This document shows positions 30,280-37,633 of a DNA stretch of 46,457 bases, one piece after another. Below the pieces are notes generated by a model. The model worked only from the letters and a program-made list of their open reading frames with translations, was not told the DNA's origin and did not search any database. The translations under genes were made by a program, and so were the position numbers. The stretch's first letter is position 1. Each line of letters opens with the position of its first letter. This DNA is from a phage: the NCBI GenBank assembly GCA_026328835.1, contig GCA_026328835.1_4850.1. One strand, given 5' to 3'.

Positions 30280-30711
30280 TCATTCATCAAGTCCAAAATA
30301 GAATAAAGTTGCTTTTTTTAGTTCATCAAGACCGTAAGCGATGGCGGCATAATGACCAATCCTGCACATCTCAGTTAACACAGCGGATTGCTCTTTGCTA
30401 ACCCTGCTTTTGCTTTTATCGCGACGCTTTGCTTCAATCATCCCGCAACCGTGATTCGCACCCGGCGTCATTATCACATTGTCGCCTATTCCAGTCTTAA
30501 CCCCCATCTTCTGGCGCTTCAGCACAAACTGCACCCTGCTTGATGTGCCAGTTTCGTTGGGTACATGAAACCACAGAACATCAGGGAAGCGGTGTTGCAT
30601 CCATGTGCCGTAACCCATCTGGTCAGTCTCCTCCTTCGGACACTCCCCACGATAACCGCTATCAAATACCCATATACCGCTATCAAGCTGCTTCACTTTG
30701 CTCACCTGCAA
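30280..30711 (-). CDS. VRR-NUC domain nuclease
   Basis: GIGDNVIM...GCGMIEAK...S.EQ pattern; next to helicase. Confidence 0.6.
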   Translation of the reverse strand: MQVSKVKQLDSGIWVFDSGYRGECPKEETDQMGYGTWMQHRFPDVLWFHVPNETGTSSRVQFVLKRQKMGVKTGIGDNVIMTPGANHGCGMIEAKRRDKSKSRVSKEQSAVLTEMCRIGHYAAIAYGLDELKKATLFYFGLDE

Positions 30712-32617
30712 AATCTTTTCTGTGTATTATGTCACGGCCTTTATCGTTAATACGATGTGTGATGCGTTTTGGCGCTTTAATCAACCCCGCATACATCATG
30801 AACTGCTTGGCGTTCTGGCATTTCAGGATTTTCCCAGCTATTGATTTATCATCAAGGTGAGGGAAGATGGCCTTTGCCTTGAACATGTTTTTCATGTGGG
30901 TTGCTCCGCCGTAAGGGTAGAAAACCTCGTTAGCCCAGCCTTCTTTGCCATCACAACGATTAATCCAGTAGCGATATAAAATTCCCTCTCCATCCTTCGT
31001 CAACTGGACTTTGAAGTCAATAACATCAGCCCATTCGTTGTCGGTATACGCACGCTCATTCAGTGCCGCATTTGGGTCTCGCAAAACATGATCGCAATGT
31101 CGGCAATAGCGCGCCGTAGGGTCGTTTTTAGTTCCGCAACCATCATCAAAAATACGGATGCCATGCTTATCGAAGCCGCAACGGATGTAGCTGAAAAATT
31201 CTTCGCAGCGACCATCTGGAGATAGTGCATCTTTGCCAATACAGCGGCGAGCATATGGGCTGTTCATTGTTCCACATTTTGGACACGGAACCTGTTCGCC
31301 ACTGCGTTTTGAACGTTGCGCTTCAGCCTCTTCCAGAATAGGGTCTTCATACAGCTGACCAAGCTCAAACATCGTGCCTGAGAAATCCAGAACCAGATGG
31401 TCTTCTTTATGATACCCGGCATCAATTTGCTCTTTCTTCAGCAGGCGCATTCCGCGACCAAGCAACTGAACGAGAAGGGTGAGTGACATTATTTTTCGTA
31501 ATATGACGCTTACATCCCATAATGGGATATTAACGCCAGTTGTAAGCGCGGCGATCTGGAATGTGTATTTTATTTTGCCAGTGTACGCATCCCTCAGGGC
31601 TTTGCGTCTTGCTTTTTGCCCCATATCTTCAGTAACAATCGCGTAGCTGCCTTCAGGAAGGTATTTAGCAGCCTCCAAGCAATGCTTCTTGCCTGCGCAG
31701 GTAATTAATACCCCATTTCTGTCTTTTGTAAGCTCCATCACTTTGAGCATGATTTTCTGTGTAAGAGTTCCTTGTTCAAGTATTTCCTCCTGCATCTGCT
31801 TGAGCTGCTCTGCGGTGAAGTCCTGCGTCCCGTCAACATCTGAGCCATGGAAGTTATGCAGGTCGTATTGCAAGTCATCAACATCATGAAGACCAAAGAT
31901 TGTTGGAACAACAAATCCACGATCTACCATGTACTTTGTGTCAATGTTTATTATTTCATTTTTCCAGTACGCGCCTTTCATTGATTCAGTACCACGGAAT
32001 GGACTTCCGGTGAATCCAATTGTTATCATCTCATGACCATATTTTTCCTTGCATCGCCTGTTAAGCTCAGTAAGTATTACGCCATATTGTGTTGTTGGAT
32101 TCTCACTAATAATGTCCTGCCATGGCACTTGGTGCCCTTCATCACAAAGGCAAAATCTAGGGGTAAAGTCACTCAACCCACCTTTCTTAACGTCACCGTT
32201 TGATTCATCTTTTTTATCAAAAAGTGCGTTAACTATTGTTCCTTCAGTGCCGCATATAATAGGGTATGCTGTACTTTTCCTACCAAGAGATGCGCTATAA
32301 AGAGAGTTTTTTACACCACACTCCCACATCATTTCAGCATTCTGCTCAGCTATCTCGCCCTGCCTTGAGATTACAAGACCCTCCCACCCCATATCCTGAA
32401 ATCTACTGCAAAGCATTGAAATCATCACGGTCTTTCCTGATGAAACAGACGCTGTAACATAGCTTGGCTCTGGTTTCTTTCCAAAATTACGAATAACCTC
32501 AGCGCACTTTGCGTAAACAAGCCATTGGTAATCATATGGCTCTATGGAACCTAATTTTATTGATTTCTTTAATTTATCTATATCAATTTCTGAAATCATC
32601 TTGTCTATTTTATGCAT
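30683..32617 (-). CDS. superfamily 2 DNA helicase with C-terminal zinc ribbons
   Basis: Walker A SVSSGKT; DEGH box (LCDEGHQV); QLLGRGMR arginine finger; CPKCG and CRHC pairs. Confidence 0.85.
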   Translation of the reverse strand: MHKIDKMISEIDIDKLKKSIKLGSIEPYDYQWLVYAKCAEVIRNFGKKPEPSYVTASVSSGKTVMISMLCSRFQDMGWEGLVISRQGEIAEQNAEMMWECGVKNSLYSASLGRKSTAYPIICGTEGTIVNALFDKKDESNGDVKKGGLSDFTPRFCLCDEGHQVPWQDIISENPTTQYGVILTELNRRCKEKYGHEMITIGFTGSPFRGTESMKGAYWKNEIINIDTKYMVDRGFVVPTIFGLHDVDDLQYDLHNFHGSDVDGTQDFTAEQLKQMQEEILEQGTLTQKIMLKVMELTKDRNGVLITCAGKKHCLEAAKYLPEGSYAIVTEDMGQKARRKALRDAYTGKIKYTFQIAALTTGVNIPLWDVSVILRKIMSLTLLVQLLGRGMRLLKKEQIDAGYHKEDHLVLDFSGTMFELGQLYEDPILEEAEAQRSKRSGEQVPCPKCGTMNSPYARRCIGKDALSPDGRCEEFFSYIRCGFDKHGIRIFDDGCGTKNDPTARYCRHCDHVLRDPNAALNERAYTDNEWADVIDFKVQLTKDGEGILYRYWINRCDGKEGWANEVFYPYGGATHMKNMFKAKAIFPHLDDKSIAGKILKCQNAKQFMMYAGLIKAPKRITHRINDKGRDIIHRKDFAGEQSEAA

Positions 32618-33222
32618 TATTTTACCCTACCAAATTCACCATGAAGACTTGATGATGCTTTTGCATACGCTTTATGTGCATCCTCAGGGGTATTAAAATA
32701 ACCAATAACTTTCTTTTTACCTCTAACCCAAATCTGAGCAACCCACCGTTTCTCCCTTTTGAACCAACTAACACCTTTGTATCCGCTAGTGTTATTTGAT
32801 GATAAGCCTTTATTCCATTTGTTTTGACTGCAATCAGCCAACCTGAGATTTTCTATCCTGTTATCGTTCTTAATTGTATTGATGTGATCAATGTCCATAG
32901 CTCCAGGGTCTTGCTGTTTGCATATGGCCCATACAATTCTATGTGCTTTATAATAAACACCATCAATCATCACAAGCCTGTAATTCATTTTGTCAACCTT
33001 ATTGTCAGCAGGTTTCCCCGGATACCGTGAATTCCATGTTTTGTGATATGGCGTTAATTCATCTCTCCTTTTCCAATACAGGCGTCCATTGACAACCTCT
33101 AACCTTGATGTCACGTAATCAACATCAATTTTTAGCACCTTTCTTTTTTTCTCTAAAACTTTTGAGTCGGCACCCTGAGCAACAGAACTCAGCCCTTGCT
33201 GTTCCATAGAATTCCCCCCCAC
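32617..33222 (-). CDS. HNH homing endonuclease with AP2-like domain
   Basis: HRIVW...DHINTIKNDNRIENLR plus NTSGYKGVSW...W.A. Confidence 0.8.
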   Translation of the reverse strand: MGGNSMEQQGLSSVAQGADSKVLEKKRKVLKIDVDYVTSRLEVVNGRLYWKRRDELTPYHKTWNSRYPGKPADNKVDKMNYRLVMIDGVYYKAHRIVWAICKQQDPGAMDIDHINTIKNDNRIENLRLADCSQNKWNKGLSSNNTSGYKGVSWFKREKRWVAQIWVRGKKKVIGYFNTPEDAHKAYAKASSSLHGEFGRVK

Positions 33223-33360
33223 AGTTTTTGCACTTTTTCAGAGTGATAGCCATTTCTTATCCTCGATATTAAACTCAGTTGCGTTTCATGTCAATAACGC
33301 TTGTGCGTTTCATGCGAGTAAATTACAATGATTCTACATCAACGTCAACAGGAAGATTTT

Positions 33361-34314
33361 ATGAGATACGACTGGAAAGACATTGAGCCAAAAATGCTCG
33401 GCAACTGGCAGGCTGCCATCATGTCTATCGTCAATGTGGATAGCAGAGTTTTCAATGGCAAGCACCAGCCTTGCCCGTCATGCTCAGGCAAAGACAGGTA
33501 TCGCTTTGATGATAACTTCGAAACAAAAGGCGATGGTGGCGCAATCTGCAATCAGTGCGGTTCCGGCAGCGGCATGAACTGGCTGATGAAACTCTCCGGA
33601 ATGAGCTTTCCTGAAGCACTGGAGGCGCTTGGAGGATTCCTGAACATGAACCCACGTGAAAAGCTGGAGGCAATCAGGAAAGAGTTACCGAAGATAAATT
33701 ACAATGATGACTTCATCACCGAGCAGGAAGTCGCAGCAATCATGGCTAAAACGACGCGTGTCGCGATGAATGAGTGGACTTTGATAAATGGCATTGGTTG
33801 CGACGTTAGCGTCGTCAGAGGCAAATCTGGAGAGCTTGTTGCGGTTGAGTTGATGCGCGCAGACACAATGAAGCCGTGCAATGTGGCGTTCATTGGCATG
33901 GATGGTGATGCATTCAGAACATTTTATAAAGCAGGGTACAACAAGGACTCAGCCATCAACGGTAAACTCACGCGCGGCGCGATAAGCACAATCGGAGAAG
34001 ACAACGGAAAGTTCATTTATCTTGTTTCTGATTATGCCGACGCGTGGAAGTGCCATTACTTCACTGGCGCTCATGTCTGGTGCTGCTGGTCGCCGGAAAA
34101 CATATGGGAAGTGGTGCGATCTGTTAGTGATGAGACGAAAGCACGGTTACGCTGCATAGTTAATTATAAATTCGACGAACTATGCGCGGCAGAAAATGCA
34201 GGACTTCCGGTGATGCTGCCTGATGATGCTGACACTATCAGGATGGCGAAACGAATCAGAAGAAAGATTTATGACGCTGGCGAGCTTATAGAGAAAATGT
34301 CAGTCAGCAGATAA
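33361..34314 (+). CDS. DNA primase (zinc-ribbon N-terminus)
   Basis: CPSCSGKDRYRFDD...CNQCGSGSGMNWL zinc-binding motif; ATG 33361 with AGGAAG RBS preferred over track start 33328. Confidence 0.6.
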   Translation: MRYDWKDIEPKMLGNWQAAIMSIVNVDSRVFNGKHQPCPSCSGKDRYRFDDNFETKGDGGAICNQCGSGSGMNWLMKLSGMSFPEALEALGGFLNMNPREKLEAIRKELPKINYNDDFITEQEVAAIMAKTTRVAMNEWTLINGIGCDVSVVRGKSGELVAVELMRADTMKPCNVAFIGMDGDAFRTFYKAGYNKDSAINGKLTRGAISTIGEDNGKFIYLVSDYADAWKCHYFTGAHVWCCWSPENIWEVVRSVSDETKARLRCIVNYKFDELCAAENAGLPVMLPDDADTIRMAKRIRRKIYDAGELIEKMSVSR

Positions 34315-34317
34315 AAG

Positions 34318-34346
34318 AAACCCTCCAATCGGAGGGTTTTTGTTAT
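34318..34346. terminator. bidirectional rho-independent terminator
   Basis: aaccctcc-aatc-ggagggtt between convergent genes. Confidence 0.7.
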
Positions 34347-35025: not shown

Positions 35026-35219
35026 TCACTTAATCATCAATTTTGAAATATCAACATAACCAACACAAAATCTGTGCCAGTAATCATCAAGCACGTGGTA
35101 ATTAGATCGAAACCATGCTTTGTTAATTCCACTCCAGAAAAACCACGTCGAATAACCATACGGTCTGAAATGCCATGAACCTTCTGAGCGGCAAAGTTCG
35201 CCTGATATTGTTCTCATTT
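35026..35219 (-). CDS. hypothetical small protein
   Basis: internal start MRTISGEL adjacent to upstream stop. Confidence 0.3.
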
Positions 35220-36842
35220 TAAGTTCCTCATAAATCTCATTCTCTTCATTGCTGATGACAGGATATTCCTGACTGATGAGTTCATCCGCAAACCAGACCA
35301 TGATCCGCCACCAGAAAGCCTGATATTGGATGGATTTTCGGGATCTAACTCTATTGGTGAATGCCTGTTTTCAGATATCGCAATGATGACCTCGTAAGTA
35401 AATTTATCCGGCGTAACCTGAATTGAGTTTGAATCGGCAGCTGAAATTATCTTACTGATTCTGTCGCGACAAAGTTTGTTTTTGACAACTGAAATATAAG
35501 GCTTTTCAGAGAAAGCCTTTGATTCGATGCATTTTTTAACCTTCATAACAATGTTGTCCCACTCAGTGTTTTCAAGGCCATCAAACTCTGCTTCTCCCTC
35601 AAGATAATCACGCAGGTCGTACATGCTGTTCATTACGGTTGCATACGCCCATTCAATATGGCATTCCTTTATCTGCGGAGTCATGCCATTGCGCGATGAT
35701 AAATCAGCAAATGCACAAAGAGTCGCAAGCTCAATAACCATCTGAGCAGAGCGAGGGCCGACGCTACCAATTACACCGGGAATGTTGCTTGACTTGTCTA
35801 TGCGCCTGCGCAACATCTCATAGTATTTAGAAACGCCATCATTTGCATATTCCACATTAAAGAATCCACCTGGAATTCTTGGTTTCCATTCGTTTATTAT
35901 TGTTTTATTGATTTCCATGTCAGGGGTATTCTTAAGTTCTGGCATGTGTTCATGACCTTTAATGAAAAGAGATCTCCCCATGCCGCCATCCTTTTCCCAT
36001 CTCCTTACTGTTGCAATCCCCTGCTCTGGGGTAACCGTTATGAACGGAATGAACCTTACGTTCTGTATTCCCTTCTCGTTAATGCACAGGTCATAACATT
36101 GCATGGCGTGATTTAATCTTCTTCCAATATCATGGTTCATTTTTGCAAGTCGTCGATAATCTATAGCGCCATCAGATTCACCGATGCGAGGTATCATCCA
36201 CCCCTGAGCCTGCGCAGCAGAGAGTATTAACTTCGGGTTTTGAGCACTAGCCAGCTTCTCCTGAAACAATGTAACGACAGGAGACTCAGGGAACCAGTCA
36301 CCACTAATCGATGTCCTGAACCATGAAGCCGTTTCACCAAGCGGTGAGCGCGTATCTGACCAAGACTGAAGATGTTCAGGGCAATCATCCGCGATATAAA
36401 GCAAGAAACCATCAGCCTCAATGAGTCGTTCTTTGATTTGTCGCAATGATGTTACGGTGCTTTTTGATACGCGCGGAGTGATTCCAAGATTCTCTGAGTA
36501 AGCCTTAACAAAATCAGATGGAGCACCCTTACCTGCGCCAGAGCGACCAACAATAAATGTCCCAGTGGCACACTTGTTTTTTGCGCTTGGTCCAATGATG
36601 TATCTGCCAGCCATCACCTGAGCAAGCGCGATAGCACCCGGCAATCTGTACACCTCTCCTTCTTCGCGATTTTCAAAATGATTCTCTATCTCGCACATGA
36701 ATTCACCAAGAGAACCGGGAGGAATTTTGTATCCTTCTCTGAATTCTGGCACGTCAATTTCATCAAGTGGATTTCCAGAATCAGGCTTACCTGTTGGCTT
36801 CAGAGATTCCTTTAGTTCAATGATTTGCTTTGAATCAGTCAT
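35214..36842 (-). CDS. large early protein of unknown function (Gly-rich loop GRSGAGKG; candidate replication-associated protein)
   Basis: 542-aa ORF; second gene of minus-strand operon leaving the repeat-rich region; Gly-rich loop lacks canonical GK[ST]. Confidence 0.55.
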   Translation of the reverse strand: MTDSKQIIELKESLKPTGKPDSGNPLDEIDVPEFREGYKIPPGSLGEFMCEIENHFENREEGEVYRLPGAIALAQVMAGRYIIGPSAKNKCATGTFIVGRSGAGKGAPSDFVKAYSENLGITPRVSKSTVTSLRQIKERLIEADGFLLYIADDCPEHLQSWSDTRSPLGETASWFRTSISGDWFPESPVVTLFQEKLASAQNPKLILSAAQAQGWMIPRIGESDGAIDYRRLAKMNHDIGRRLNHAMQCYDLCINEKGIQNVRFIPFITVTPEQGIATVRRWEKDGGMGRSLFIKGHEHMPELKNTPDMEINKTIINEWKPRIPGGFFNVEYANDGVSKYYEMLRRRIDKSSNIPGVIGSVGPRSAQMVIELATLCAFADLSSRNGMTPQIKECHIEWAYATVMNSMYDLRDYLEGEAEFDGLENTEWDNIVMKVKKCIESKAFSEKPYISVVKNKLCRDRISKIISAADSNSIQVTPDKFTYEVIIAISENRHSPIELDPENPSNIRLSGGGSWSGLRMNSSVRNILSSAMKRMRFMRNLK

Positions 36843-37120
36843 CAGAGGACTCTCCAGATATACATGAATTTTTTGCTTTCACTGGTTTTTGTTTTGATGA
36901 CCATGCCTTGTTCATTGGCTATTCTGGTGCAGTAAGACCTGAACATGTTGTGCGTCATGCGGTGCTTTTCATCGATCACTACAGAACAGCAATTTTCCTT
37001 TTCTCCTTTGATGATTTCGCTTGAGTATTCATTCTCGAAGTGAATACCAACCAGTTCGCCAGATTTCATTGAAGATAACAGCTCGTATGCAAACATTAAT
37101 TTAGTGCCATCTGGGTACAT
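36842..37120 (-). CDS. hypothetical protein
   Basis: 92 aa; RBS AAGGAGG at 37123-37129 (minus). Confidence 0.5.
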   Translation of the reverse strand: MYPDGTKLMFAYELLSSMKSGELVGIHFENEYSSEIIKGEKENCCSVVIDEKHRMTHNMFRSYCTRIANEQGMVIKTKTSESKKFMYIWRVL

Positions 37121-37145
37121 TCAGTCCTCCTTTTGTGATGTAAAA

Positions 37146-37174
37146 AATATACATGAATATTATGTACACGTCAA
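37146..37174 (-). promoter_or_regulatory. sigma70-like promoter for minus-strand early operon
   Basis: minus strand TTGACG (37174-37169), 17-nt spacer, TATATT (37151-37146). Confidence 0.5.
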
Positions 37175-37215
37175 CGACAGCAAGATAACGTTCTAGCTTA
37201 CACATCTTTACAGTA

Positions 37216-37600
37216 GTTACCGGAGTTACCGGGTTTTTACCGATCAGTTACCGATGCAAGTTACTGATAAATATAGAGTTACCGGAGTTACCGGATTTTT
37301 TGCATATGAGTCTATAAAATATCGAAAATGAGAATTTGTATCAAAATTGAATAAAATGCTTATAAATCATGTATATAATAAGAAATTAAACCCTTTTTAT
37401 ATATGTAAGGAGTTACCCGGTAAATCCGGTAACTATCCTGAGATCCTTGCTGTTCGCGGGTTTCAAGTTACCTGACGTCCGGTAACTCCGGTAACTTTTT
37501 AATGGCAAAACCGGCATAAAAACAACATAAGTAATTGATTTGTAACAGTTACCGGTTTTTATGTTCCGAGTTACCGGATTTTGCGTTACTTGGGTAACTT
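37216..37600. repeat. array of GTTACCGG / CCGGTAAC repeats flanking an AT-rich core
   Basis: at least 11 copies in both orientations, e.g. 37216, 37225, 37278, 37287, 37412, 37427, 37479, 37488, 37548, 37570; AT-rich 37300-37410. Confidence 0.75.
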
Positions 37601-37604
37601 GCTG

Positions 37605-37633
37605 TTGACGTAGAATCATCATTGATGTAGATT
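37605..37633 (+). promoter_or_regulatory. sigma70-like promoter for plus-strand early operon
   Basis: TTGACG, 17-nt spacer, TAGATT; 30 nt upstream of first early ORF. Confidence 0.45.

Follow-up and report, generated by a model that had tools for sequence, protein, structure and literature searches.

The alpha protein of phage P4 is a superfamily 3 (SF3) helicase fused to a primase, and its C-terminal winged helix recognises octamer iterons at the origin. The Rep protein of the staphylococcal SaPI elements is initiator and helicase in one; it is self-loading, and its C-terminal winged helix binds opposed iterons arranged around an AT-rich centre (PMC9371898). Proteins with the DUF3987 domain have been classed as superfamily 6 (SF6) replicative helicases, distant kin of MCM with a winged helix-turn-helix at the C-terminus, that are usually fused or adjacent to primases of the archaeo-eukaryotic (AEP) or DnaG type (PMC4889955), and one of them, the PriCT-DUF3987 protein AgaPH, is a proven ATP-dependent 5'-3' helicase for which both Walker A and Walker B are needed (PMC11724360). 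Here we describe a 542-amino-acid (aa) protein and the adjacent repeat array in contig GCA_026328835.1_4850.1 (GenBank assembly GCA_026328835.1), a phage DNA of 46,457 nucleotides that is called, at its whole length, the window below. The phage is a Swiduovirus-like siphophage, and gp21 of Escherichia phage vB_EcoS_swi2 (swi2), annotated as 'hypothetical', is 99% identical to the protein. We conclude with good confidence that it is a replication helicase of the DUF3987/MCM-like superfamily, namely a stand-alone, highly diverged SF6 AAA+ helicase with a C-terminal winged-helix domain that serves as the replicative helicase of the phage. We also favour, with less certainty, the repeat region as the origin on which this helicase acts, and by analogy with SaPI Rep the helicase may well be the origin-recognising initiator as well.

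The protein shares with the DUF3987 helicases (AgaPH and the helicases encoded by T1-like phages, C1 and Vi II-E1) an AAA+ core with the Walker A lysine, Walker B, arginine finger and sensor 2, a C-terminal winged helix, a primase neighbour and the same genomic position in sister phages, and it is connected to them by transitive homology. It differs from them in that it has no direct Pfam match and resembles none of the canonical phage proteins by BLAST, that its Walker A motif is without Ser/Thr, and that a helical insert of some 100 residues separates Walker B from sensor 1; moreover, it stands alone, without a PriCT or Prim-Pol domain, and has a dedicated 92-aa partner gene. Compared with archaeal and eukaryotic MCM (SF6) and with the MCM-like helicase of a Bacillus cereus prophage, it has no N-terminal oligonucleotide-binding (OB) fold/Zn domain, an identity of only about 12% and a deviant P-loop. 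The likeness that we propose to SaPI Rep and to Cch of SCCmec would consist in one protein being helicase and initiator, with a C-terminal winged helix reading short iterons beside its gene, in opposed iterons that flank an AT-rich centre, and in a specificity that differs by element lineage. In contrast to these proteins, with which it has no detectable sequence similarity, iteron binding is putative here, the iterons lie upstream of the operon between divergent promoters and not downstream of the gene, and the carrier is a virulent enterobacterial siphophage with an extra 92-aa partner instead of a staphylococcal mobile element. With P4 alpha the likeness lies in the logic of winged-helix helicase and iterons only, and there is no evidence of homology. 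The main elements of the locus are the following.

35214-36842, minus strand: divergent DUF3987-superfamily/MCM-like AAA+ protein of 542 aa, putative replicative helicase-initiator
36842-37120, minus strand: gene of a 92-aa protein, first of the operon and constant companion of the 542-aa helicase type
35223-37598, unstranded: exchangeable origin-helicase cassette delimited by blastn (helicase, 92-aa gene, leftward promoter-like site and the whole iteron array)

The open reading frame (ORF) is real, as the initial annotation had it, and begins with ATG on the minus strand. The statement that no family could be assigned to its product holds for the searches in Pfam, NCBIfam, PADLOC and the PDB sequences (the last with the single sequence and with two profiles), which gave nothing or noise only, but not for phrog_3022, profile searches and fold comparison; a superfamily can be assigned to it. 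In PHROGs the protein matches phrog_3022, annotated 'DNA primase', with an E-value of 6e-13, and the match spans positions 341-711 of the 788-position profile, that is, its C-terminal, non-primase half. A search of 1.84 billion representatives with the profile of the close family (A1) returned 135 matches, many of the distant ones being proteins of 700-870 aa that are matched in their C-terminal half; a Pfam scan of 40 distant matches recognised DUF3987 in 22, Prim-Pol in nine and PriCT_2 in two. Two of the proteins found with A1 are matched over the whole AAA+ region and also exceed the gathering score of 27 bits of Pfam DUF3987 (PF13148): P0024 (E 2.5e-13, profile positions 39-418; 35.3 bits) and P0025 (E 3.6e-12, positions 8-413; 40.5 bits). 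Some database records already name relatives 'replicative DNA helicase' or 'DNA primase'.

Structure prediction, which had been suggested as a check, gave an AlphaFold2 (AF2) model with a mean predicted local distance difference test score (pLDDT) of 82.5 and a predicted TM-score (pTM) of 0.71. The model consists of an N-terminal helical region (residues ~1-90), an AAA+ core (~91-415), a linker (415-422) and a C-terminal domain (423-541) that matches winged-helix folds. A fold search in BFVD found full-length matches to phage 'replicative DNA helicase' entries, DUF3987 proteins and PrimPol fusions, and in the fold comparison the core is an AAA+ alpha/beta domain with lid that is closest to MCM, the MCMs standing about 4 Z units above all other AAA+ classes. 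The motifs were located on the model and in the alignments as follows, the names sensor 1, arginine finger and sensor 2 being putative assignments from fold position.

36528-36551, minus strand: deviant Walker A/P-loop GRSGAGKG, residues 98-105, between strand 93-97 and helix 105-118 of the model
36387-36410, minus strand: Walker B, F-L-L-Y-I-A-D151-D152, at the end of strand 145-150
35976-36035, minus strand: from the sensor-1 region (T268/T270, end of strand 262-269) to the GGMGR motif, whose R289 is the putative arginine finger before strand 290-294
35754-35756, minus strand: R363, putative sensor-2 arginine (role inferred) at the start of lid helix 364-378, invariant in alignments A1, A2 and A4
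35220-35576, minus strand: C-terminal domain, residues 423-541, winged-helix-like with a basic terminal helix 521-538, candidate origin-recognition domain

The glycine-rich loop had been described as not a canonical Walker A. This is correct in so far as the loop keeps the Walker A lysine (K104) and has G105 in place of the Ser/Thr of canonical GxxxxGK[ST]; by its position in the fold and by its alignment with the Walker A of relatives, however, GRSGAGKG is the P-loop. The deviation is shared by the clade. In 33 homologues the lysine is followed by G in ten cases, D in ten, E in seven, S in three, Q in two and N in one, and none of 40 distant relatives has Ser/Thr after GK; for the clade the pattern reads [ST]xxxGK and then D, E or G, with a conserved Ser/Thr four residues ahead of GK. 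P0024 and P0025, despite scoring above the DUF3987 threshold, have the same deviant loop, with Asp or Glu after GK. In the close family G101, G103 and K104 are invariant, and K104 is so in all alignments. For Walker B, D152 is invariant in A1 and D151 nearly invariant in the broadened alignment (A4), most distant relatives having DE instead of DD. The only invariant columns across the 33 homologues (15-62% identity) are G103, K104, G285, R289 and R363; at the level of invariant or nearly so, the conserved set includes K104, D151/D152, T270, R289 and R363, together with G285 and G288 of the GGMGR motif. The arginine finger motif of MCM is SRFD, which R289 in GGMGR-SLF resembles.

A further line of evidence is the repeat array from which the 542-aa gene is transcribed away. 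The array had been noticed in the initial annotation and is borne out: GTTACCGG occurs in nine exact copies, against 0.48 expected, all of them within 37216-37577.

37215-37599, unstranded: iteron array, 15 copies of the 9-mer AGTTACCGG (nine exact, the rest with one or two mismatches)
37295-37410, unstranded: AT-rich block between oppositely oriented iteron groups, 30-bp windows with 73-90% A+T (~80%), candidate DNA-unwinding element
37146-37174, minus strand: sigma-70-like promoter, TTGACG, 17 nt, TATATT (consensus scan, 10 of 12 matches)
37605-37633, plus strand: sigma-70-like promoter of the divergent rightward early operon, TTGACG, 17 nt, TAGATT

Six copies of AGTTACCGG in plus orientation occupy 37215-37294 on the helicase side, and copies of mixed orientation, tandem minus-oriented pairs among them, occupy 37411-37599. 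The array lies between the two promoter-like sites, its last iteron abutting the rightward -35 hexamer; both sites are consensus matches only, and the region has no more such sites than are expected from shuffled sequence. Cumulative GC skew is lowest at about 37 kb. Neither Rfam nor a tRNA scan found anything in the window as a whole, and the repeats are therefore not a known RNA. In a literature search on DUF3987 together with iterons or origins, none of the papers listed mentioned DUF3987. As separate observations, the promoter-like sites at 37146-37175 and 37604-37633 form an imperfect inverted repeat (30 nt, 70% complementary; I3) around the array, and two inverted pairs of tandem iterons, 37214-37234/37415-37435 (I2) and 37272-37295/37478-37501 (I4), have arms that are 180 and 182 nt apart; this near-equal spacing might mean that two protein assemblies sit in a fixed geometry.

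When related loci are drawn with the helicase to the right, right-pointing iterons are followed by a block of 60-100 bp with at least 80% A+T and then by left-pointing tandem iterons beside the operon. This layout holds in seven cassettes of the window type and approximately in C1, although the iteron sequences differ. The dominant repeats, with the identity of the respective helicase to the window protein, are listed here.

Window and swi2, 99-100% identity: AGTTACCGG
P0004, 60%: AGTTACCGG
P0003, 62%: TTACCGGGT
Bas80 and Bas81, 51-53%: TTTACCGG
P0009, 44%: TTTTACCGG
BUCT541 group, 53-54%: GAGTTCCC
P0007, 51%: TTATCGGT
sal3 type, ~18% (LPSTLL representative): TTTTATCC
Canonical C1 and Vi II-E1, no detectable similarity: CCCCACGA and GTGGGGCA, respectively

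Thus the repeat sequence changes with the helicase lineage while the layout stays. The protein had been proposed as an initiator or replication accessory protein; co-inheritance with the repeats agrees with a replication protein, but most likely it is the helicase itself and not an accessory to the superfamily 2 (SF2) helicase of the phage.

The helicase and the array move together. In blastn comparisons with C1 (Deseoctovirus) and Vi II-E1 (Macdonaldcampvirus), DNA identity is 92-97% up to 35222 and again from 37599, and there is no DNA similarity between these points; the right edge of the cassette thus falls just short of the rightward promoter-like site, which is kept in phages with other cassettes. 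At the same position C1 and Vi II-E1 encode a canonical DUF3987 protein of 517-518 aa, named 'DNA helicase' in RefSeq (gp70 and VIP0048, 120 and 116 bits with Pfam DUF3987, E 1e-34), a type of which we found 1163 records, T1-like phages among them. A third type is that of Salmonella phage 64795_sal3, a protein of 494 aa that has a small ORF of its own upstream. Pfam finds nothing in this protein, which is homologous to the wider family (hhalign probability 100%, E 3e-71 against A4, an alignment that contains its relatives) and present in 154 phage records. Bas80 and Bas81 have a diverged form of the 542-aa type. In all, at least three helicase types (542-aa, canonical DUF3987 and 494-aa sal3) alternate at this position in related phages, and sister phages that are otherwise about 90% identical can nevertheless have a canonical DUF3987 helicase and different repeats at the same place.

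By tblastn, the 542-aa type itself was found in only 11 phage records, which include swi2, the BASEL phages Bas77, Bas80 and Bas81, ZCEC08, ASO78B and the Klebsiella phages BUCT541, KpnS_VR6602 and KLB16, and the close family comprises only ten clusters in a collection of 5.8 billion sequences. Searches of plasmids and of 185,579 species genomes yielded no relatives, and thus nothing points to an origin from a plasmid, prophage or satellite.

Several results weigh against the reading of the 542-aa protein as a DUF3987-like replicative helicase that reads the adjacent iterons. Pfam gives no DUF3987 match to it even at E-values up to 1 (the only match, DUF3715 at E 0.13, is noise), and BLASTP detects no similarity to its positional analogue gp70 of C1. 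In profile-profile comparison (hhalign) with the alignment of canonical T1-like and C1-type DUF3987 proteins (A3), A1 is non-significant (probability 0.6%) and A4 marginal (E 8.6e-4, probability 24%, 192 columns). The AAA+ core carries between Walker B and sensor 1 a strongly conserved, mostly helical insert (residues 153-260); by DSSP, strand 2 and helix 2 have no hairpin between them, and the insert before sensor 1 is mainly helical with isolated bridges at 218 and 226. An N-terminal OB-fold/Zn domain of the MCM type was not found. With a Walker A that lacks the Mg-coordinating Ser/Thr, ATPase activity is not guaranteed, and the phage also encodes an SF2 helicase. The minimum of GC skew coincides with divergent transcription. 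Finally, the 92-aa protein co-varies with the iterons as well as the helicase does, and the identities per domain support the C-terminal domain as a possible specificity determinant only weakly and inconsistently: in four lineages with TTACCGG-type iterons it is more conserved (66-73%) than the AAA+ core (47-59%), lineages with other iterons have about the same identity in both, and P0009 contradicts the trend.

To these negatives may be added that phmmer with C1 gp70 and VIP0048 found nothing among all retrieved homologues. In the A4-A3 alignment, sensor 1, arginine finger and sensor 2 are sensibly paired, IPFITVTPE...GMGRSLF with ISVIAQDE...GLSERFL. Because the Pfam threshold is not reached, BLAST finds no similarity and the match to the canonical profile is non-significant or marginal, we assign the protein to the DUF3987/MCM-like superfamily on the grounds of transitive homology and predicted fold, and do not count it as a member of Pfam PF13148.

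In the mechanism that we propose, the 542-aa protein would be expressed together with the coupled 92-aa protein from the leftward early promoter, and would assemble as a ring ATPase at the adjacent origin, where opposed AGTTACCGG iterons flank the AT-rich block (~80% A+T) within 37215-37599. The iterons would be recognised by the C-terminal domain of the helicase, by the 92-aa partner or by both; the AT block would then be melted and the DNA unwound for the neighbouring DnaG-type primase and the host polymerase. Which of the two proteins reads the iterons is a finely balanced matter: that it is the 542-aa protein rather than its partner we hold with a slight lean to doubt, the 92-aa protein being an equally placed candidate.

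A division of labour, in which the 92-aa protein is the specific iteron binder (initiator or loader) and the 542-aa protein a recruited motor only, with the winged helix making ring contacts or non-specific DNA contacts, is the alternative that we take most seriously, although we consider it unlikely. It would fit the position of the 92-aa gene, which is translationally coupled and directly upstream of the helicase in all lineages examined except KLB16 and lies inside the swapped cassette, and small upstream ORFs are also present in canonical and sal3-type cassettes. Against this, KLB16 has the helicase without any small upstream ORF. The alpha protein of P4 is itself a helicase that binds iterons with a C-terminal winged helix. 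The same holds for SaPI Rep, where the C-terminal winged-helix helicase binds the iterons itself (PMC9371898).

We also considered that the repeats are operators of the two divergent early promoters and not an origin, in which case the linkage to the helicase would reflect only a cassette-encoded regulator such as the 92-aa protein. The array does lie exactly between the promoter-like sites, with the last iteron against the rightward -35, and replication operons with a small upstream repressor exist, an example being orf56/orf904 of pRN1 (PMC4234260). We nevertheless regard this explanation as quite improbable. Fifteen sites over 385 bp, in convergent orientation around a block of 80-90% A+T, are origin-like (PMC9371898); the layout is kept across cassettes whose repeat sequences differ; and phages whose repeats are entirely different have kept the rightward promoter and its genes. 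The roles of operator and origin are, in addition, not mutually exclusive.

That the 542-aa protein is an ATPase-dead or non-helicase AAA+ protein, such as an origin-binding or remodelling factor or a MoxR/RavA-like chaperone, with unwinding left to host DnaB or the phage SF2 helicase, appears very improbable. The deviant Walker A is what would speak for it, but all the other catalytic residues are conserved, which argues against a dead enzyme: invariance of Walker B, sensor 1, arginine finger and sensor 2 would be unexpected there, and P0024 and P0025 exceed the Pfam threshold with the same deviant loop. The margin of the MCMs over other AAA+ classes in the fold comparison and the fusion of relatives to Prim-Pol primases speak against a non-helicase role. 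An accessory gene (a 'moron' for defence or anti-defence) unrelated to replication would suit the sparse distribution in 11 phage records and the variable early region, but this idea was rejected and is hardly credible, because the position holds a superfamily helicase in all four relatives inspected (C1, Vi II-E1, 64795_sal3 and Bas80/Bas81), those without the 542-aa type having another DUF3987-superfamily helicase there, so that the gene is replaced rather than present or absent, while PADLOC has no match and fold and homology point to replication helicases.

Returning to the 542-aa protein as an origin-reading helicase, we put forward a broader proposal that is tentative and somewhat doubtful. 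In virulent Jersey-like and Swiduovirus-like siphophages, the origin and its MCM-like helicase may be joined in a specificity cassette that is self-contained and can be exchanged horizontally. The helicase would be the initiator that reads lineage-specific iterons of 8-9 bp through its C-terminal winged helix, with self-loading like that of SaPI Rep, helped by a 92-aa partner whose fold has no close solved relative, and its ATP hydrolysis would rely on a P-loop without the universal Ser/Thr, for which Asp, Glu or nothing has been substituted. The at least three mutually unrecognisable cassette types would then constitute replicon 'specificity groups' among lytic phages that are about 90% identical.

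Through the analysis a 'hypothetical protein' (gp21 of swi2, with its relatives in Bas77, Bas80 and Bas81) becomes a testable replicative helicase, and a group of coliphages used in therapy and in studies of defence systems gains a concrete candidate origin at ~37.2-37.6 kb. It also shows that Pfam DUF3987 misses a whole sub-clade, which is a common one when the homologous 494-aa type is included. The cassettes are swapped cleanly and their iterons co-vary with the helicase, which offers a natural experiment on origin-initiator specificity in lytic phages; a minor puzzle for enzymology is that the Walker A Ser/Thr has been lost throughout the clade. Current understanding is not overturned, since the kind of system is already known and the 542-aa form is an unusually diverged and swappable version of it; the deviant P-loop, the Pfam blind spot and the exchange of origin-helicase cassettes among near-identical lytic phages make it worth experiment.

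The remaining features of the neighbourhood are as follows.

35026-35217, minus strand: 64-aa ORF with an ATGA overlap to the 542-aa stop, outside the cassette, 97% DNA identity to C1
34343-34792, minus strand: DUF3850/ASCH ('RNA-binding') gene downstream of the helicase operon
34316-34341, unstranded: bidirectional intrinsic-terminator-like hairpin, GC-rich with T-runs on both strands, between the primase gene and the leftward operon, both of which it would end
33328-34314, plus strand: DnaG-type primase (Zn-ribbon and phrog_510), convergent with the helicase operon
32617-33222, minus strand: HNH_3 and AP2 homing-endonuclease-like gene, between primase and SF2 helicase
30683-32617, minus strand: SF2 helicase (ResIII/Helicase_C), 644 aa, beyond primase and hairpin

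The leftward operon under the promoter-like site at 37146-37174 consists of the 92-aa gene, the helicase gene, the 64-aa gene and the ASCH gene. The 542-aa start codon and the 92-aa stop codon have the single base 36842 in common (TGATG overlap), and since the 64-aa ORF overlaps the 542-aa stop codon, the three genes look translationally coupled. The initial annotation had placed a helicase and a primase further downstream in this operon, which is not the case: the primase gene is on the plus strand and convergent, with the terminator-like hairpin in between, and the SF2 helicase lies beyond it. The primase is likely the partner of the 542-aa helicase; its gene is about 900 bp from the helicase stop, and the same arrangement is found in most related loci examined.

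The SF2 helicase contains short zinc-ribbon-like inserts around residues 445-512 (matches to DUF7577, Zn_Ribbon_1 and the RanBP type). The DNA of the HNH_3 and AP2 gene (~32618-33229) has no blastn match in five of six related loci, Bas81 overlapping it partly, which suggests a mobile insertion. The segment 34408-35000 is unmatched in the otherwise closest relative, swi2, and is matched in part by Bas80, up to 34767, and by Vi II-E1, up to 34503 and again from 34730; as judged from these DNA comparisons, it is a case of further mosaicism.

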